From: an uncultured Bacilli bacterium
Lineage (GTDB): Bacteria; Bacillota_I; Bacilli_A; RF39; UBA660
Assembly (NCBI GenBank): GCA_947632625.1
Contig: CANRPZ010000003.1
Location: 1 to 34,412 of the forward strand
Length of the DNA: 34,412 nt
Direction: 5' to 3'
Position numbers and translations under genes: made by a program. Position 1 is the stretch's first letter, and each line of letters begins with the position of its first letter. Below are positions 2,460 through 13,856 of the stretch, one piece after another. Below the pieces are notes generated by a model that was not told the DNA's origin, did not search any database, and saw only the letters and a program-made list of their open reading frames with translations.

Positions 2460-3549
2460 ATGGACAAAAAAGAATTATTAAATACTTTAAATCAATTGTT
2501 AGAAAAAGTAGATGAATTAGGGAGGGGACTTTGACTTACCCCAAAAAGAAAAAAGAATACAAGAATTAGAACAAAAAGTTAATGATGAAAATTTTTGGCA
2601 AAACGTTGAAGAATCGACCAGCGTGAATCAAGAATTAACAGCTTTAAAAAAAGAAAGAGATTTTTTTATACAAACGAAAAAAAGTTTGGAAGAAGATATA
2701 GAACTTATTGATATTATAGAAGAACATGAACTTGAAAACTTAAAAAAAGAAATAGACGTTTTAGAACAAGAAATAAAAAATCTAGAAATCAATTGTTTGT
2801 TAAGTAAAGAATTTGACCAATTAAACTGTTATCTAGAAATTCATCCTGGCGCTGGTGGAACAGAGTCTTGTGATTGGGCAAGTATGCTAGCTCGTATGTA
2901 TACAAGATTTTGTGAAAGCAATCATTATAATTACGAAATTATAGAAAGTCAAAAAGGTGAAGAAGCGGGGCTTAAAAGTTTTACTATGTATATAAAAGGA
3001 TTATATGCTTATGGTTATTTAAAAAATGAAAAAGGAATTCATAGATTGGTACGTATTTCTCCTTTTGATTCAAATAAAAGACGTCATACCTCTTTTGCAT
3101 CTGTTTTAGTAACCCCTGAATATAAACATACCATTTCGGTGGACATTAAAGAAAGTGATTTAAAAATAGATGTTTATCACTCAAGTGGAGCTGGTGGTCA
3201 AAGTGTAAACACATCAAATTCAGCTGTTAGAATTACCCACTTACCAACCAAAATTGTTGTGACTTGTCAAAATGAACGAAGCCAAATGCAAAATAAAGAG
3301 CAAGCTATGAAAATGTTAAGAAATAAACTTTATGAATTAGAATTACAAAAACAAGAACAACAACAAAATAATTTAAAAGGAACAATCCAAAATATTGAGT
3401 TTGGTAATCAAATTCGTAGTTATGTTTTAGAACCTTATAAATTAATAAAGGATCATCGTAGTGGCTATGAAACTAGCGATGTTTTAAAAGTACTAGACGG
3501 TGATTTATTGCCAATTTTAGAATCCGTTTTAAAAAATAAAAAAGAATAA
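2460..3549 (+). CDS. prfB: Peptide chain release factor 2, programmed +1 frameshift (join 2460-2531, 2533-3549; 362 aa)
   Basis: ATG 2460 reads MDKKELLNTLNQLLEKVDELGRGL to CTT TGA C at 2529-2535. The +1 frame continues DLPQKEKRIQELE...FW into the listed 2623 ORF, which has the SPF (ISPFD) and GGQ motifs. Confidence 0.97.
2520..2535 (+). promoter_or_regulatory. RF2 autoregulatory +1 frameshift cassette
   Basis: GGG AGG GGA CTT TGA C: internal SD-like sequence followed by the canonical CTT-TGA-C shift site. Confidence 0.95.
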
Positions 3550-4944: not shown

Positions 4945-6913
4945 TAACAATACAATTAAAAACTTATTCCCTTATTTGGTATTAATAGTAGTTATCTTTT
5001 TTGTATTAACTGTATTAAACTTTGGGGGGACAATAAATCATAGTTTAACAACTGGAGAACTTTTAAGTGAATTAGAAAAAAGTAACGTTACAGAAATTAC
5101 AATTACACCTAAAAGTAATGATTCTGTATATTATATTGAAGGAAAATTAGCAAACTATAAAGAAAAAGAAAGCTTTTCTGCTAAAGTTGTCGAAGAGGAT
5201 TTAACAGAAATAACCAATTATGCTAAAGAACATGATTTAGAGGTTTATGAAACCAATAAAGATCCAGGTTCTATATCTTTAATTTATATAATTGTGAATT
5301 TCTTACCTTTAGTCCTTATTATTGGAGCTTCTTACATTTTAATTACGAAAATGGCTGGAAGCAATAAAAATTCTATGGACTTTGGAAGAAGCCGTGCTAG
5401 ACTATCTGAAGATGGTGGTTCAACTAAATTTAGTGATGTAGCAGGACTTAAAGAAGAAAAAGAAGAGGTTGCTGAACTAATTGATTTCTTAAAAAATCCT
5501 AAAAAATTCCAAAAGTTAGGAGCAAGAATTCCGAAAGGTGTTTTATTAGTTGGTCCTCCAGGAACAGGTAAAACTTTACTTGCAAAAGCAGTTGCAGGAG
5601 AAGCCAATGTACCTTTCTATTACATTAGTGGATCTGATTTTGTGGAATTATTTGTCGGTGTTGGTGCAAGTCGTGTAAGAGATATGTTTAAAGAAGCCAA
5701 AAAGAATGCACCATGTCTAATCTTTATAGATGAAATTGATGCCGTAGGTCGTCAACGTGGAGCAGGTCTTGGTGGAGGTCACGATGAACGTGAACAAACA
5801 TTAAACCAATTGCTTACTGAAATGGATGGATTTGGAGCGAATGAAGGAATTATTATTATTGCTGCAACCAATAGACCGGATGTTTTAGACCCAGCTCTAT
5901 TGAGACCAGGAAGATTTGATAGACAAGTTACTGTTAATTTACCAGATACAAAAGAACGTGAAGCAATTTTAAAAGTTCATGCTAAAAATAAAATTCTTGA
6001 TAAATCAGTAAGTTTAGAAAATGTTAGTGCTAGAACTCCAGGCTTTAGTGGTGCTGATCTTGAAAACTTACTTAACGAAGCCGCTTTACTTGCTGTAAGA
6101 AAAGATGAAGAAGCCATTACAATGGATGATATTGATGAAGCAACGGATCGTGTATTAATGGGTCCAGCCAAAACAAGTCGTAAAATAACAGATAAAGAAA
6201 AGAAACTTGTAAGTATTCATGAATCTGGTCATGCAGTTATAGGTATTAAATTAGAAGATGCCAACGAGGTTCATAAAATAACGATTATTCCACGTGGTAT
6301 GGCTGGTGGTTATACGATGATGCTTCCAAAAGAAGAAAAAATATCTGTTATGACCGAAAAAGAATTACTCGCAACAATTACTGGTTTACTTGGTGGTCGT
6401 GCTGCTGAAGAATTATTTTTAGGAGAAATAACAACTGGAGCAAGCGATGATTTTAAAAAGGCTACCAATATAGCACGTAGTATGGTTTCTGAATATGGTA
6501 TGAGTGAACTTGGTCCAATGCAATACGAACAAAAAAGCGAAGGTGTCTTTTTAGGTAGAGATTATAATAAAACGAAAAATTATTCTGATCAAGTTGCTTT
6601 AGAAATTGATAGAGAGGTTCGTAAAATTATTGAAAACTGTTATAAAGATGCTAAAAGAATTTTAAGTGAAAATGAAGATTTAGTAATGACATTAAGTAAA
6701 GCTTTAATTGAAAAGGAAACGTTAACTAAAGAAGAAATTGAATCACTTGTAACCACTGGTAAAATAGAAGAGAATTTAGAACCTTTGAAAGAAGATGAAC
6801 CTTCCTTACTAAAATTAAGAGAAATTGCTAAAGCTAATAAAATTAAAGGTTATACAAAAATGACCAAAGAAGAATTAGAAGAAGCTATTAAAGATTTAGA
6901 TAGTTTAAAATAA
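4934..6913 (+). CDS. ftsH: ATP-dependent zinc metalloprotease FtsH
   Basis: Two TM helices, Walker A GPPGTGKT, Walker [34 protein letters not shown] zinc motif. Start set to ATG 4934 after AAGGAGG. Confidence 0.98.
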
Positions 6914-6928
6914 TCTAAATCTTTTTTT
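6890..6928 (+). terminator. Intrinsic terminator of tilS-ftsH
   Basis: 12-bp stem aaagatttagat (6890-6901) / atctaaatcttt (6913-6924) spanning the stop codon and running into a T tract. Confidence 0.7.
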
Positions 6929-6937
6929 CTGATTTAA

Positions 6938-6966
6938 TTGCAAAAGTAAAAAGAGTTTAGTATAAT
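6938..6966 (+). promoter_or_regulatory. sigma-A-type promoter of the putative DGR target gene
   Basis: TTGCAA (6938-6943), 17 nt spacer, TATAAT (6961-6966); RBS AGGAGG at 6978-6983 and ATG at 6994. Confidence 0.75.
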
Positions 6967-6993
6967 TAAATTAACATAGGAGGAAAAAGAATT

Positions 6994-8803
6994 ATGAAGA
7001 AAAGAAATAGAATCCTCCCAACCGAAACTAGCTTCGGGGGGGGGGTTATTAGAAAGTAATAATAAACCAACGGAGCTACAAAGGTATAAGAAAAATACAA
7101 AGCAAAAGAAAATTTTAATTGGAGCAATAGTATTATTTATATTAATCATTGGCGGTATAAAACTATATCGCACTTTTGCATTGTATAAAGAAGAAAAATC
7201 CTTTAATGTATTAAAAGGAATAGTACCGGATTTTGTCGGAGGAGATGTAATACTCGCATTCACTGTAAATAATAAGGAAACAAATCACTTATCTTTCCCA
7301 AATAAAGGAGAAGGATATAAAGTAGATAAAGTAACTTGTGAGAATGATGTAAAAGCAGATTGGAATAACAATTCTTGGAGTCTAGAAATAAAGGATAGTA
7401 ACAAACAAAGAAAAATAAAATGTACAATTAATTTTAATAAGTATCAAGAAAGTATATTAAATGAAGCAGACCCAGTATTAAAAGAAGGATTAGTAGCAGT
7501 AAAAGTTGATAAAGATACAGGTGCAGTAACCAAAGCAGATACAACAAAACAATGGTATAGCTATGAGAATCAAGAATGGGCAAATGCGGTAATACTAACA
7601 AATGGTAAAACAGCAGATAACTACCAAGATAATGACCCGATACCAGAGGCAGATATCGAAAGTTATTTTGTATGGATACCAAAATATAAATATCAAATAT
7701 TCGATATGGGAAATTATACAACGAGAGAAGAAGATAGTAGTTATCAAGATAATGAACAAGCTATAGAAATAAAATTTGGCTTAACGAATACTATAGACGA
7801 TGAGGAAGAATGCATTGCTCCACCAAGTGGAGAGAATGGTACTTGTGCTGTAAATAAATGGATGACGCATCCAGCGTTTACTGCTTTTGATACAAACGGA
7901 ATCTGGGTTGGAAAGTTTAAGACAGGATACAAAGGAGCAAATAGTAAAACCGAAGCTGAACAAGATGGAGATGCATCTAAAATCATCATAAAACCAAATG
8001 AATATAGTTGGAGAGGTATAACTATAGGAATAATGTATCAAAATAGTTTAAATTATAATAAAGATTTAAATAGTCATATGTTAAAAAATACCGAATGGGG
8101 AGCAGTAGCTTATTTAGCCAACTCTATTTATGGACGATGTGACAAAAATACAAAGGAGTGTAGTGAAATACATGTCAATAATAATTCTGATTTTTTAACA
8201 GGTTATGCCGCAAAGCACAAATTTACAATAGGTTTTACTAGTACAAATGAGTCTTGTACAGAGCACTCTGATGCTTGTAATGAATATGGAGGATCAAGCA
8301 AAGGGCAAGACGGAACTTATAACTATCAATATTTTAGTCCAAAAAGTGTTAAGGCAAGTACCACAAATAATTACACTGGTATTTATGATATGAGTGGAGG
8401 TTCATGGGAATACGTAATGGGTGTGATGGTGGATGCAAATGATAATCCAATATATTTAAATAGTGAGTTAAGTGCAGATGATTTAAAAGACGAGAGATAT
8501 TATGATGACTATAAAAATGGTGTCGAATTCCAATATACAAGTCGAATATTAGGAGATGCAACAGGAGAGATGGGACCATTTATTCAAGAACAATATACGG
8601 GAACAACAACTACTGCAGTAGAACAAACTAGAACAATTAGTGGATGGTATCATGATGAAGGTTGGTTTGTCTTGACTGGCAGTCCTTGGTTCCTGCGTGG
8701 TGGCGTTTACGATCACGGGTTTGAGGGCGGTGTTTTCACTTTCGTTCGCGGCGCAGGTGAGGCGTACGCGTACCGTGCTTTTCGCCTTGCTCTTGCCTTT
8801 TAG
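6994..8803 (+). CDS. Membrane-anchored surface protein with C-terminal CLec/FGE-sulfatase-like domain; putative DGR target; out of frame at a G10 tract (602 aa if G9)
   Basis: ATG 6994 reads MKKRNRILPTETSFGGGVIRK* (stop 7057-7059). The +1 frame after the G run reads LLESNNKPTELQRYKKNTKQKKILIGAIVLFILIIGGIKLYRTFALYKEEK... into the listed 7181 ORF. Motifs FVWIPKY, THPAF, GIWVGKF, KNTEWGAVAYL, GIYDMSGGSWEYV and WFLRGG...AFR resemble FGE-type CLec domains. Confidence 0.8.
7036..7045 (+). repeat. G10 homopolymer, candidate slipped-strand phase-variation tract
   Basis: Ten consecutive G in an AT-rich window, at the exact junction between the start-codon frame and the main frame. Confidence 0.8.
8660..8803 (+). 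other. Putative DGR variable region (VR) plus IMH-like 3' end
   Basis: Hand count for 8661-8800: 11 A in 140 nt (8%) and 79 G+C (56%), versus 29 A in 60 nt at 8581-8640. Only 1 of the last 47 sense codons ends in A. Encodes the RGG...G.F...FR lectin-fold tail. Confidence 0.72.
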
Positions 8804-8858
8804 TTCAATCAATTAATCCAAACTTTATAAATACTCATATACTATAAAGAGGTGTATT

Positions 8859-9941
8859 ATGAGTAAACTTAAAGTATATGTTTATGCCATTTGTAAAAAT
8901 GAAAGTAAATTTGTTAAAGATTATATTGCTAGCATGAGTGAAGCAGATGGCATTTATGTATTGGATACTGGTTCACAAGATGATACTGTAAAATTACTAA
9001 AAAAATATAAAAATGTTCATGTAAAAGAAGAAAAAATAGAGCCTTTTCGTTTTGACGTTGCTAGAAATAAATCTTTAGAAATGGTTCCTAAAGATGCGGA
9101 TATTTGTGTTTGTACAGATTTTGATGAGGTCTTTCAAAAAGGATGGCGAAAGAAATTAGAAGAGGTTTGGGTAAAAGAAAATCCAACTCGTGTAGAATAT
9201 TTATATAACTGGAGTTTTAATGAATATGGAAAACCAGCTACAACCTTTTATATGTCTAAAATTCATAAAAGAGATGCTTATATTTGGCATCATCCCGTTC
9301 ATGAGGTTTTAAAATGTTTAATTCCTAATGAAAAAAGTGTAATTGCTGAAGGCATAGTTTTAAATCATCATCAAGATTTTAAAAAACCAAGAACAAGTTA
9401 TTTATCACTTTTGGAATTAAGTGTAAAAGAGGAACCTGAAGATGATCGAAATATGCATTATTTAGGCCGTGAATATATGTATTATCAAAAATGGAATGAA
9501 GCTATTGATACATTAATTCGTCATTTAAATCTAAAAAGTAGTACTTGGAAAGATGAAAGAGCGGCTTCTATGCGATTTATTGCTCGATCTTATATGGGAT
9601 TAAAAAGACCATTAGAAGCTAAAATGTGGTATTTACAAGCCATAAAAGAAGCTCCTTATTTAAGAGAAGCTTATGTTGAACTTGCAGAAATTTATTATAA
9701 TGAGCAAGAATATGATAATAGTTATTACTATTTAACGGAAGCTAATAAAATAAAAACGAAACCAATTAGCTATATTAATGAAGATTTTTGTTGGAATGCT
9801 TATTTTTATGATTTATATAGTGTTGTTTGTTATTATACAAAACATTATGAAGAGGCCATTATAAATGTTAAAAAAGCTATTGAGTTAGACCCTAATAATG
9901 AAAGATTAAAAACCAATTTACAAATAATGGAAAAAAAATAG
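8859..9941 (+). CDS. GT2 glycosyltransferase with C-terminal TPR repeats
   Basis: VYAICKNE, VLDTGSQD, FDVARN, DxD motif CTDFDE, PVHEVL; TPR-like helices (YYLGREY-like HYLGREY, AIELDPNNERL). Confidence 0.88.
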   Translation: MSKLKVYVYAICKNESKFVKDYIASMSEADGIYVLDTGSQDDTVKLLKKYKNVHVKEEKIEPFRFDVARNKSLEMVPKDADICVCTDFDEVFQKGWRKKLEEVWVKENPTRVEYLYNWSFNEYGKPATTFYMSKIHKRDAYIWHHPVHEVLKCLIPNEKSVIAEGIVLNHHQDFKKPRTSYLSLLELSVKEEPEDDRNMHYLGREYMYYQKWNEAIDTLIRHLNLKSSTWKDERAASMRFIARSYMGLKRPLEAKMWYLQAIKEAPYLREAYVELAEIYYNEQEYDNSYYYLTEANKIKTKPISYINEDFCWNAYFYDLYSVVCYYTKHYEEAIINVKKAIELDPNNERLKTNLQIMEKK

Positions 9942-9952
9942 TCTGATTTTTA

Positions 9953-11503
9953 TCAGGCTATTAATTTGGCATGTACAACTAATCTTTCCGTATAATTTGT
10001 ACAAGTTGATAATGTTAAGATTTTATCCCCAGGTTTTACCTCAATATTAAAATCTTCTATGCTTCTTTCTTTAATTAAACTTACAAAATCATTAAAATCT
10101 TCATCAGTTTCAAAATAATTTTGTAGATAATCGGTAGTTTTGGGAACTTTATAAATAGAAAAAATCTGATACTTATGACTTTCGTAAATTGTGTCAAAGG
10201 TAATAATTAAATTTTCTGTATTGCTATACCAACTTTTCTTAAGAGCATTCGATAATGTTCCGAACATAACACTACTATAGTACATAGTATGACCAAATAT
10301 TATTGTATTATCATCCATTTCATAATCATTATTTCGATAATCCATAAAAATCCAACCGTTTTTATCCTCTTCATTATAAAGATTATGTTTTAAATAATAC
10401 TCATTATCTTTGGCTTGGACAACAGGATAGTCAATATTTGTGTCGTTTACTTTAAGCCATCCCACTACATCTGGATTTATAGATAAAATAGATGCAATAT
10501 AATTATTTTTAATTTCTCGTTGGGGATCAATTTCGTCTATTAAAGCAGGTGGCGTTTGATTATCTCGAATCGTTTCCCGAATATTTTCTTGAATTTCATT
10601 AACCTCTTGTAGTGATTTATAATTTGTAATAACAATATATAAAATAATTCCGGAAACGAGTATGACTAAAATTGAACCAATAATTTTTAATGTATTCATC
10701 ATGATTTGAATGAAAAGATTATTATTTAAGTATTCTTTGGAATAGACTAGTTCAATTTTGATTTTATTTTTGCGAATTTTTTTATTTAATTTTTTTAAAT
10801 ATTCAATCGATTTACTATCTTTAATATTAGAATAGATTAAGATTTTAATATTGCGCAAGCGATTATCACATAAAATTTCTAGAATAGTTTCTAAATCTTG
10901 TTTGTTATAAACATCCAAATGAATTGTTTTTAAATATTTGTTAATATTACAAAAAGCTAAAAAGTCATCTTTGTCATCTTCATCTAATAAAGTATCAATA
11001 TGAACATTCATTTTATAAAATATTTTAGAATAACTTGTTAAATTATTGCTTTGCATAAAATGACTAAGGTAAAATAGCTCGGTTCTCGATTCAGAATGAA
11101 TGCCCTTTTTATCTAACATTTCAATCATATAGGATGGAATATGTTCGGCTTCTATGTAGTTAATATTTTTATTTTCTAGAATTTTTTCATATAACTCATA
11201 GGATAGGGGAGCATTTTCTCTTATACATACCGCTGTAATATAAGGATTTTTTCTTAATAAATCTAATATGAAGATTGCAAGTTCATTATTTTCAAATGTA
11301 ACTCGATACACTTTTTTTTCTTGGCATATTTCATTAATAAATAAAGAAACTAGCTTTTCATTATCTAATATATAGTTTGGCGTAAAAATAAGTTCACTAT
11401 CATTAATTATATTAGTGTTTGATAAATTTGGTTTAACCGAAGGGGCATTTTTATATGCAAAAATAAGGGAATCATTGTAAATACTAATTTGAATTTTTTG
11501 CAT
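9953..11503 (-). CDS. srtB: Class B sortase with large N-terminal extension (516 aa)
   Basis: Encoded on the minus strand: + strand tcaggctattaatttggcatgtacaac at 9953 is the reverse complement of VVHAKLIA*, so the ORF-track strand label is wrong. Motifs NPDVVGWL, IDYPVVQ, GWIFMD, IIFGH, MFGTL, LTLSTC, ERLVVHAKL. ATG at 11503 follows AAAGGTGGTG. Confidence 0.9.
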   Translation of the reverse strand: MQKIQISIYNDSLIFAYKNAPSVKPNLSNTNIINDSELIFTPNYILDNEKLVSLFINEICQEKKVYRVTFENNELAIFILDLLRKNPYITAVCIRENAPLSYELYEKILENKNINYIEAEHIPSYMIEMLDKKGIHSESRTELFYLSHFMQSNNLTSYSKIFYKMNVHIDTLLDEDDKDDFLAFCNINKYLKTIHLDVYNKQDLETILEILCDNRLRNIKILIYSNIKDSKSIEYLKKLNKKIRKNKIKIELVYSKEYLNNNLFIQIMMNTLKIIGSILVILVSGIILYIVITNYKSLQEVNEIQENIRETIRDNQTPPALIDEIDPQREIKNNYIASILSINPDVVGWLKVNDTNIDYPVVQAKDNEYYLKHNLYNEEDKNGWIFMDYRNNDYEMDDNTIIFGHTMYYSSVMFGTLSNALKKSWYSNTENLIITFDTIYESHKYQIFSIYKVPKTTDYLQNYFETDEDFNDFVSLIKERSIEDFNIEVKPGDKILTLSTCTNYTERLVVHAKLIA

Positions 11504-11642
11504 AAGTTCACCACCTTTTTTTACTCTTATGATACTATAATAACACAAATTTACACTTTTTTATAAAAAAATGTAGCATTTAGGTATTTTTATGTTATAA
11601 TTAAGACATAATAAAAGTAAAGTAGAAAGAGGTAAGAAAAAA

Positions 11643-12377: not shown

Positions 12378-13856
12378 ATGGAAAAAAGTGAAATTATAAA
12401 ATCGATTGCGACGCGTGGCAATGGAGAAATTTATTTAGGAGTAGTAGGGGCGGTAAGATGTGGTAAAAGTACTTTTATTAAACGTTTTATTGAAAATTTA
12501 GTAGTACCTAATATAGAGGATGAGTACGAAAAAAGAAAATGTTTGGATGAAATACCACAAAGTGCTGAAGGAAAAGCTATTATGACTACCGAACCTAAAT
12601 TTGTTCCTTCTAGTGGAGCAACCATTAAAGTAGATGAATTTGAAACTAAAATTAAATTAGTAGATTGTGTTGGATATGTCATTAAAGGCGCAACAGGACA
12701 TATTGATGAAGATGGTAACCCAAGGATGGTAAAAACACCATGGTTTGAAGAGTCAGTACCTTTTTACGAAGCTGCAGAAATTGGTACGGAAAAAGTCATC
12801 AAAGATCATGCTACAATTGGTATTGTTATGACCTCTGATGGAACTTTTGGCGAAATTCCTCGCGAAAATTATTTAGAGGCTGAAGAAAAAATTATTGGAG
12901 AATTACAAGAATTAGGAAAACCTTTTATTGTTATTTTAAATACCAAAAATAAAGAGAGTGGTAGTGCAATAACTTTATCAAATGAACTTAGAAATACTTA
13001 TAATGTGCCTGTTATTCCACTTAATGTTGCAGAAATGACAGAACCAGAAATTTTGAATGTTTTAAAAGAGGCTTTATATGAATTCCCAGTTTTAGATATA
13101 AAAGTAAACATTCCAAAATGGGTTCATGTATTAGATAATCATCATGAAATCAAAAAACATTATTTAGAAAAAATGCAAGAAAGTGTTATTTCTGTTAATA
13201 AAATTCGTGATGTAGAAAATATTCTAAATTCCTTTAATGAGTCAAACTATATTTCTAAAAGTTATATTAGTGATGTTGATACCTCAACCGGAAATGTAAC
13301 AATTGCTTTAGAAAGTAGCGATGAATTATACAATACCGTTTTAAAAGATTTAATGGGAGATATGGTAACGACAAAAGCTGGTTTATTAAAAATATTTACA
13401 ACGTATAAAGAAGGAAAAGAAGAAATGGATGGTATACGAGATGCCCTTAAAATGGCTAAAAGTACTGGGTATGGAATTGTATATCCTAACCTAAAAGATA
13501 TGACGCTTTCAACGCCAGAAATTATTAAGCAAGGCTCTCGCTATGGTATTAAATTAAAGGCCGTTGCTTCTAGTATTCATTTAATGAAAGTTAATGTTGA
13601 ATCCACATTTGAACCAATTATTGGAACAGAAATGCAAAGTAAAGAGTTAATTAATTATATTATGAAAGATTATGAAACAGATCCATCAAGTATTTGGAAA
13701 AGTGAAATCTTTGGACGTAGCCTTGATGTAATTGTAAAAGAAGGAATCCAAGCCAAACTTTCAGTTATGCCAGAAAATGTTCGCTATAAAATGAGCCAAA
13801 CAGTAACAAAAATTGTCAATAAGGGATCAAATAATTTAATTACGATTGTCCTATAA
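12378..13856 (+). CDS. spoIVA: Stage IV sporulation protein A (spore coat ATPase)
   Basis: 492 aa; GEIYLGVVGAVRCGKSTFIKRF, MTTEPKFVP, VDCVGY, IWKSEIFGRSL; upstream of HU as in Bacillus. Confidence 0.97.
   Translation: MEKSEIIKSIATRGNGEIYLGVVGAVRCGKSTFIKRFIENLVVPNIEDEYEKRKCLDEIPQSAEGKAIMTTEPKFVPSSGATIKVDEFETKIKLVDCVGYVIKGATGHIDEDGNPRMVKTPWFEESVPFYEAAEIGTEKVIKDHATIGIVMTSDGTFGEIPRENYLEAEEKIIGELQELGKPFIVILNTKNKESGSAITLSNELRNTYNVPVIPLNVAEMTEPEILNVLKEALYEFPVLDIKVNIPKWVHVLDNHHEIKKHYLEKMQESVISVNKIRDVENILNSFNESNYISKSYISDVDTSTGNVTIALESSDELYNTVLKDLMGDMVTTKAGLLKIFTTYKEGKEEMDGIRDALKMAKSTGYGIVYPNLKDMTLSTPEIIKQGSRYGIKLKAVASSIHLMKVNVESTFEPIIGTEMQSKELINYIMKDYETDPSSIWKSEIFGRSLDVIVKEGIQAKLSVMPENVRYKMSQTVTKIVNKGSNNLITIVL

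Follow-up and report, generated by a model that had tools for sequence, protein, structure and literature searches.

Slipped-strand switching and diversification by diversity-generating retroelements (DGRs) are, each taken separately, textbook mechanisms. We describe here a family of bacterial genes in which the two probably act together, and we take as its representative a gene at 6994-8803 in a stretch of 34,412 nucleotides (called the window throughout) from an uncultured Bacilli bacterium (GTDB lineage Bacteria; Bacillota_I; Bacilli_A; RF39; UBA660; NCBI GenBank assembly GCA_947632625.1, contig CANRPZ010000003.1, positions 1 to 34,412 of the forward strand). Close to its start codon the gene carries a run of ten G, which in the assembled sequence places the main body of the gene out of frame, and its 3' end is a DGR variable region (VR).

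Switched families of surface proteins are familiar from Mycoplasma, where vlp of M. hyorhinis and vlhA of M. gallisepticum have one simple-repeat switch per gene, in the promoters, and draw their diversity from repeat number or recombination. The present family is like these in belonging to reduced-genome relatives among the Bacilli, in being a large family of surface proteins and in having a per-gene repeat switch through which a changing subset would be shown, and unlike them in that the tract is translational and the diversity comes from retroelement mutagenesis. For the tract itself, the poly-G/C contingency loci of Campylobacter jejuni, Neisseria meningitidis and Haemophilus influenzae offer a parallel (reviews include PMC8355987 and PMC5084427): these too have G9-G11 close to the 5' end of genes for surface proteins, one length class in frame with the others stopping within a few codons, and further tracts in the same genome in promoter spacers and surface-sugar genes. 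In contrast to those loci, the host here is an uncultured gut member of the Bacilli with a genome of about 1.1 Mb in which MutS and MutL are present, the tract belongs to a cassette repeated in 15-19 paralogs per genome and is included in a conserved hairpin, and the gated genes are DGR targets.

On the side of the retroelement, a 2018 survey (PMC5758913) gives the TvpA family of Treponema denticola, with 7 remote targets of one DGR, as the maximum for non-adjacent targets, and records MutS-like (MSL) accessory genes in DGRs, for example in Legionella. Such multi-target and MSL-type systems share with ours a single cassette of reverse transcriptase (RT), Avd and MutS-like genes, targets lying away from that cassette, C-terminal VRs on proteins of the C-type-lectin fold, and mismatches at adenines; the present system differs from the TvpA type in that the near-pure adenine pattern is seen in at least six VRs, and in that some 25 paralogs share a genome only a third as large. 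In the literature searched, supplements lying outside the search, no account of a DGR target governed by a simple-repeat switch came to light. The terms 'phase-variable' and 'poly-G tract' have 0 occurrences in the DGR papers found, the preprint of a global DGR survey has 0 occurrences of 'phase vari', 'homopolymer', 'frameshift' or 'paralog', and the DiGReF paper confines itself, in its background, to contrasting DGR and phase-variation mechanisms.

The features of the locus, in window coordinates, are as follows.

6938 to 6966, + strand: sigma-70-type promoter, TTGCAA, 17-nt spacer, TATAAT (10/12 matches)
6978 to 6983, + strand: ribosome-binding site (RBS) AGGAGG, 10 nt 5' of the ATG (direct reading)
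6994 to 7059, + strand: leader reading frame at the assembled G10, 21 codons and TAA
7014 to 7019, + strand: CCTCCC element, conserved at the nucleotide level (33/33 unique leaders)
7014 to 7045, + strand: predicted hairpin in which CCUCCC pairs with six G of the tract, the inner stem CCGAA/UUCGG using the first two G (minimum free energy fold, z = -2.5)
7036 to 7045, + strand: G10 homopolymeric tract, proposed slipped-strand switch, in frame at G9 or G12
7046 to 8803, + strand: body of the variable-protein gene, 585 codons and stop, whose sole open frame is +1 with respect to ATG 6994
7097 to 7180, + strand: basic stretch and single transmembrane helix, putative N-terminal signal anchor (residues 18-45 counted from 7046; model helix and sequence)
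8662 to 8796, + strand: DGR VR, matching the template repeat (TR) at 616-750 of another contig of the same assembly (G000:C25; VR/TR alignment)
8777 to 8796, + strand: GC-rich 20-nt 3' end of the VR, GCTTTTCGCCTTGCTCTTGC, candidate priming or homing segment like the initiation of mutagenic homing (IMH) element (alignment columns 132-151)

From the ATG at 6994 the frame runs for 14 codons before it meets exactly ten G at 7036-7045; at this length it reads MKKRNRILPTETSFGGGVIRK and ends at the TAA at 7057-7059, after 21 codons. In the +1 frame a stop at 6995-6997 is followed by 602 open codons up to the stop at 8801-8803, and the earliest ATG, GTG or TTG of that frame is the TTG at 7181, beyond the basic-plus-hydrophobic segment KQKKILIGAIVLFILIIGGI. 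A tract of G9 is predicted to join the two frames into a product of 14 + 3 + 585 = 602 amino acids, and G12 into one of 603. These readings agree throughout with the original prediction, which had a promoter and AGGAGG leading to an ATG with only 21 codons, a main frame encoding a membrane anchor although it has no start codon before 7181, and two frames that meet at the G10 tract and are fused by G9 or G12. A start independent of the tract was looked for in the +1 frame and is ruled out, there being no ATG, GTG or TTG before 7181, which itself lies 3' of the anchor. The sequence that paralogous leaders have in common starts at about 6956.

Runs of G8 or longer occur in the window at this site alone, whereas 100 shuffles gave an expectation of 0.10 and never attained the observed count. 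The locus thus has a homopolymer of about 8 nt or more in the 5' coding region, far above composition, and a single length class that gives the full-length open reading frame (ORF) with the others truncating soon after the tract, three copies with shifted flanks excepted; both are marks of a contingency locus.

The window belongs to a metagenome-assembled genome (MAG) of 1.04 Mb in 91 contigs, 91.8% complete and of 28.3% GC, from a genome of about 1.1 Mb (G000; in what follows G denotes genomes, C contigs of this assembly and L loci). Runs of G or C in this assembly are bimodal in length, with 155 of length 5, nine of length 6, one of length 7, none of length 8 and 22 of length 9-11, and 15 of these 22 long runs occupy a leader of the window type. 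Paralogs had been thought possibly to share the layout of the window gene, and they do: five such leaders have G9 (C6 and C71, at contig edges, C22, C31 and C84), nine have G10 (C3, C21, C37, C49, C54, C56, C59 at an edge, C79 and C88) and one has G11 (C30, at a contig edge), while four additional leaders are truncated within the tract at contig ends. Two leaders near-identical to that of the window, on C84 (96%) and C6 (98%), have G9 against its G10. Gene bodies reaching the C-terminus are found on 25 contigs; since contigs break at the shared leader, leader, body and VR stand in one piece for the window copy only.

Some members do without the cassette. The paralog on C43 has neither leader nor tract, and its own promoter, RBS and ATG give MKLQRYKK... 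directly 5' of the anchor; leaderless copies in G006 and G016 (L038, L057, L059 and L066) likewise have their own promoter, RBS and ATG giving MKLQRYKK... before the anchor, and gene calls of homologues from other taxa start at this same point. That these paralogs start directly at the anchor implies that the leader is an add-on control module, that the anchor must be translated and that the leader peptide is dispensable. The promoters of leaderless copies (L040, at G000:C43, ~1540-1640, with L057, L059 and L066 of G016) are flanked by short direct or palindromic repeats, on C43 for example by repeated tatacgtat-like units; the repeats resemble operators and point to control of these copies by a regulator instead of the tract. 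Members of the family are also arranged in tandem (G000:C43:10350-10459; L038 in G006), the next leader or start following the previous stop by a few to tens of bases, and a joint from 8663 to 6954 in a contig of the Logan collection may be the same tandem arrangement.

The cassette is widespread in the genus. A 271-nt query running from promoter to anchor matched 15 of the 24 other genomes of the genus and, outside it, 2 of 16, weakly and over short stretches. All listed matches were retrieved for three genomes. G006 has 18 loci with 17 tracts (one G6, three G9, twelve G10, one G11), G016 has 17 loci with 13 tracts (two G9, nine G10, two G11), and G023 has 17 loci with 16 tracts (four G8, two G9, nine G10 and an interrupted G7). 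A further MAG, whose leaders are distinct from those of the four tabulated genomes, adds eight G10 and one G9, with one site cut. The five genomes together hold 70 tracts: 47 G10, 13 G9, four G11, four G8, one G6 and one G7. The in-frame length is 9 or 12 (or 6) wherever the downstream sequence sufficed, with the exception of L081, L092 and L147, in which the flank is shifted by one base; short (G6) or interrupted tracts stay in the 3n frame (L037, L007, L075 and L083). The proposal that tract length would vary between paralogs and strains is thus borne out among paralogs and MAGs of the genus, from G6 to G11, with multiples of three in frame. Best-match loci elsewhere are mostly G10, a figure biased by the query, which is itself G10.

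When species-representative genomes were scanned with a pattern for the cassette, the only records among the matches listed that contained it came from rabbit and wild-mouse gut and bore the titles 'uncultured Bacilli' or 'uncultured Tenericutes'; the remaining listed matches were chance ones in GC-rich genomes. A second type of leader (L011, L012 and L014; G024, G017 and G003) has G10 at the same place without CCTCCC, in the form atgaagaaa...gacaaa/gacgaat-G10-ttattagaaact.

The 3' end of the window gene had been proposed as a DGR variable region, and the gene is confirmed to be the target of a DGR. Between its VR and the TR there are 22 mismatches, of which 20 fall at TR adenines (20 of the 31 A), 2 at C, 0 at G and 0 at T. 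The segment GCTTTTCGCCTTGCTCTTGC is identical in the TR, the window VR and the VR adjacent to the cassette, and the sequences diverge right after it, the bases of IMH and IMH* being indistinguishable by sequence. The near-pure adenine pattern recurs in five other VRs (C25, C59, C10, C24 and C76), and eleven further matches to the TR in the assembly are more diverged. Within the window there is no TR-like direct repeat and no RT gene, both being found on C25, so that the DGR cassette sits on a separate contig from the target gene. On contig C25 the final part of a paralogous target gene is followed by the 135-nt TR (616-750) and then, in this order, by ORFs matching the Pfam families MutS_I (6.2e-11), bAvd (2.5e-23) and RVT_1 (6.8e-16), the last being the only RVT_1 match in the assembly. 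The RT aligns over its full length (4.5e-49) with PDB 8ub7, a solved RT of 328 residues which we take to be that of the Bordetella phage DGR.

The window protein matches no Pfam or NCBIfam family; among its more than 6,500 homologues, the 120 best listed are likewise without a Pfam family (0/120). An AlphaFold (AF2) model, built from 54 aligned sequences (the window protein and 53 homologues) with a mean local confidence (pLDDT) of 87.3, shows a helix at the N-terminus and, after it, a large ectodomain. Foldseek matches it best to TaqVP (5vf4), the DGR variable protein of Thermus aquaticus (E 1.7e-7, probability 1.0), with weaker matches to Mtd, formylglycine-generating enzymes (FGE) and TvpA. 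The model therefore has the C-type-lectin or FGE-like fold with the VR at its C-terminal end, as is characteristic of DGR variable proteins. No C-terminal sorting signal was seen in the protein by eye. The protein is presumably a binding receptor at the cell surface.

Around the tract, per-sequence folds predict an identical hairpin architecture for each of the 33 unique leaders, which come from several species: an outer stem of CCUCCC with six G of the tract, an AA bulge and, closing on the first G's, an inner stem whose sequence differs by lineage (for example CCGAA/UUCGG, CCAUUG/CAAUGG, CCAGA/UCUGG and CAGG/CCUG). The hairpin ends 3' on the last G of the tract, where UUAUUAG follows. When only the variable insert was shuffled the mean z was -2.1, and for 20 of the 33 leaders at most 5% of shuffles folded as well, a figure which, the leaders being related, is not a probability. 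RNAalifold, run on 32 leaders aligned by MAFFT, returned no more than the invariant outer stem, with 0 compensatory pairs, because the inner stems were out of register in that alignment. CCTCCC is kept at the nucleotide level: its Leu codon is always CTC, which makes up 1.3% of Leu codons in the genome, and a C invariably closes the preceding codon, though this may encode Ile, Asn, Ser, Asp or Thr, for which C-ending forms are 8.5-17% of their families. Since the second type of leader lacks CCTCCC, the hairpin is not universal among the tract-bearing leaders of the genus. The leader matches no Rfam family; the one sub-threshold match, to Spd-sr07 (27.3 bits against a gathering threshold of 55), lies at 6865-6921, upstream of the leader.

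Long tracts in this organism are not confined to the family. Eight long runs of G or C in the G000 assembly lie outside it, and four of these are between or directly beside -35 and -10 boxes (C4:25479-25488, C20:329-339, C50:8515-8524 and C23:1-7); that at C4:25479, for example, is arranged as TTGACA, 18 nt including G10, and TATAAT. These promoter-type tracts, G7-G11 in length and 5' of genes for membrane and secreted proteins, are candidate promoter-spacer phase switches, and can act through DNA length only. Others lie in genes to which functions are assigned by eye from the N-terminal sequences: an acyltransferase-like gene has an in-frame G9 as its codons 12-14 (C20:13455-14561), a membrane-protein gene duplicated in tandem has in both of its identical copies a G11 that splits the copy into 88 + 391 amino acids (C29:9808-12733), and a G10 lies within a sugar-aminotransferase-like region adjoining capsule-type genes (C14:4108-4737). 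Since the tracts outside the family are G9-G11, G10 is close to the usual tract length of the organism. MutS and MutL are both present in the assembly, which rules out missing mismatch repair as the cause of instability.

The best reading of this locus, and one that we hold to be probable, is that the G tracts are slipped-strand ON/OFF switches on a DGR-diversified family. A portable 5' cassette of promoter, RBS, ATG, some 14 codons, hairpin and G tract would head most paralogs, and the gated family would consist of N-terminally membrane-anchored proteins of the C-type-lectin fold. A tract of 3n (G9, G12 or G6) would fuse the leader ATG to anchor and ectodomain and so be ON, while at G10 or G11 translation would end 3-5 codons past the tract, leaving the gene OFF or at most leaky. 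Replication slippage would alter the tract length such that few members of the family are expressed in any one cell lineage, and the single DGR on C25 (TR, MutS-like gene, bAvd and RT) would independently rewrite, in trans, the C-terminal VRs of at least six members, the window gene included. Changes of length are presumably frequent and reversible within a lineage; going by comparison between copies, G10 would be truly silent and the switch would flip stochastically.

Several observations weigh against this reading or limit it. The assembled Logan contigs of four runs over 5000-9500 have no indel at 7036-7045, and are uninformative on heterogeneity as no contig of the window copy spans the tract. 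Exact patterns of the 27-nt unique flank and of the 32-nt leader had 0 matches in public metagenome contigs, and the protein search turned up no other assembly of the same species. Every tract length is the consensus homopolymer call of a MAG and may be off by one, and the pairing of a given leader with a given VR is seen for the window copy alone. G10 is over-represented (47/70) and G8 rare (4), and programmed use of G10 would give the same picture; the conserved hairpin containing the tract is neither needed for, nor explained by, plain slipped-strand switching. Finally, with MutS and MutL present, rates of slippage may be below those of Campylobacter or Helicobacter.

The alternative that survives best, though we consider it unlikely, is programmed recoding, in which G10 would be the state the gene is built for and would be expressed from unaltered DNA, changes in tract length only modulating the level. 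Two routes can be envisaged. During transcription, the nascent hairpin, with CCUCCC invading the rG:dC hybrid, could let RNA polymerase realign on the C-run and yield some G9 transcripts; the inner hairpin would lie just behind the RNA-DNA hybrid at the end of the run, and CCUCCC could strip the G-run off the template. During translation, tRNA-Gly could slip by +1 on the GGG codons, GGG being a minor Gly codon (9.4%); the window has no tRNA genes. The predominance of G10 in 47/70 tracts across five genomes would fit recoding, as would the conserved hairpin lying 5' of and overlapping the run with its differing inner stems (33 unique leaders, mean z -2.1) and the CCTCCC kept against codon bias, with its CTC codon and C-ending predecessor. 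A stable stem-loop, in prediction, does stand immediately 5' of a slippery run in these 33 leaders, and there is precedent: according to a review (PMC5009743), a nascent stem-loop 5' adjacent to T5C5 in the Roseiflexus IS630 transposase gene gives rise to transcripts lacking one C. Our locus resembles this case in having a hairpin beside a 10-nt slippery run and in that the loss of one base from the RNA would restore the frame. It differs in that the DNA state of IS630 is fixed and the run comes after (3' of) the hairpin, whereas here lengths vary between copies and the run is itself the 3' arm.

Contrary to what is expected of genes expressed by transcriptional slippage, the out-of-frame state is not fixed in all copies, 23/70 tracts being other than G10 and 13 of them already in frame at G9, and near-identical leaders that differ in length mean that the DNA state does change. 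The excess of G10 can be a mutational equilibrium, seeing that non-coding promoter tracts are also G10-G11. The inner stems gained no compensatory pairs from RNAalifold (0, the inner stem being out of register). The organism does use +1 frameshifting at prfB, and the leader has in common with that gene an upstream G-rich, Shine-Dalgarno-like run and the need for a +1 shift; unlike prfB, however, the G tract has no CUU-UGA-type shift site with an adjacent stop. A prfB-like site was sought and rejected, the zero frame after the tract reading GUU AUU AGA AAG UAA, with no stop beside the slippery codon and the nearest one 4-5 codons away.

Switching of the DNA and correction of the RNA may also coexist, and the excess of G10 together with the hairpin leaves room for an RNA-level layer on top of the switch. 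In one such arrangement, put forward tentatively and as improbable on present evidence, the leader would work at two levels, RNA polymerase, or the ribosome at the rare GGG codons, being led to correct G10 to G9 in some molecules by the hairpin, whose CCUCCC would compete with the template for the G-run RNA, with slippage of the DNA shifting genes between low and high expression; or else the hairpin would tune the rate of DNA slippage.

We give very little credence to a third explanation, that the tract is truly G9 and the gene intact and constitutive. Homopolymers of 9-11 are error-prone in short reads, and this is a fragmented MAG of 91 contigs, but G9, G10 and G11 are found at different near-identical copies of the leader within one assembly, four other MAGs have a like mixture, and the tract is conserved against a background of 28% GC. 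In addition, one 148-nt Logan contig from another run covers 6999-7058 with G10 and 0 gaps, though it then continues as a paralog. Least credible of all is a fixed inactivating frameshift in a redundant paralog with no switching: the family is indeed large and redundant and several VRs have drifted from the TR at non-A positions, so that some copies may be decaying, but here the body is open for 585 codons, which at 28% GC has a chance of about 1e-22 (by arithmetic) and so argues against a decaying pseudogene, mismatches of the VR to the TR are nearly all at adenines and its 3' GC-rich segment is intact, promoter and RBS are intact, and in each genome examined it is at this hypermutable tract that most of the family is out of frame.

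Other genes of the window deserve brief mention. That for release factor 2 (prfB, RF2; 2461-3549) has the classical +1 programmed frameshift, with the shift site at 2529-2535: the short frame opened by the ATG at 2461 closes with GGGAGGGG-A-CTT-TGA-C, and after it the +1 frame encodes the PCRF/RF-1 body, which the ORF list gives only from the GTG at 2623. On the 3' side of the variable gene lie, at 8859-9941 and 9953-11548 (- strand), a family 2 glycosyltransferase (GT2) with TPR repeats and a 531-residue class B sortase with a long N-terminal extension. A full-length SpoIVA is encoded at 12378-13856 (345.8 bits, ATPase domain), a sporulation gene not expected in a genome as small as about 1.1 Mb; records of the relatives carry the label Bacilli or Tenericutes.

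The roughly 25 receptor-like genes, of some 1.8 kb each, amount by arithmetic to about 4% of the genome of this gut bacterium, which is of about 1.1 Mb. Tract length appears to determine stochastically which of these genes are used, and one retroelement then to diversify their binding tips, in a manner that resembles the choice of one receptor gene followed by its hypermutation. Should the leader work at two levels, every paralog would be sampled at a low level, and in either form of that proposal programmed recoding, simple-repeat switching and retroelement hypermutation would come together in one cellular gene family. The system lets one ask why DGR targets form families, whether silent copies receive mutagenic cDNA, and what effect a hairpin has on slippage.

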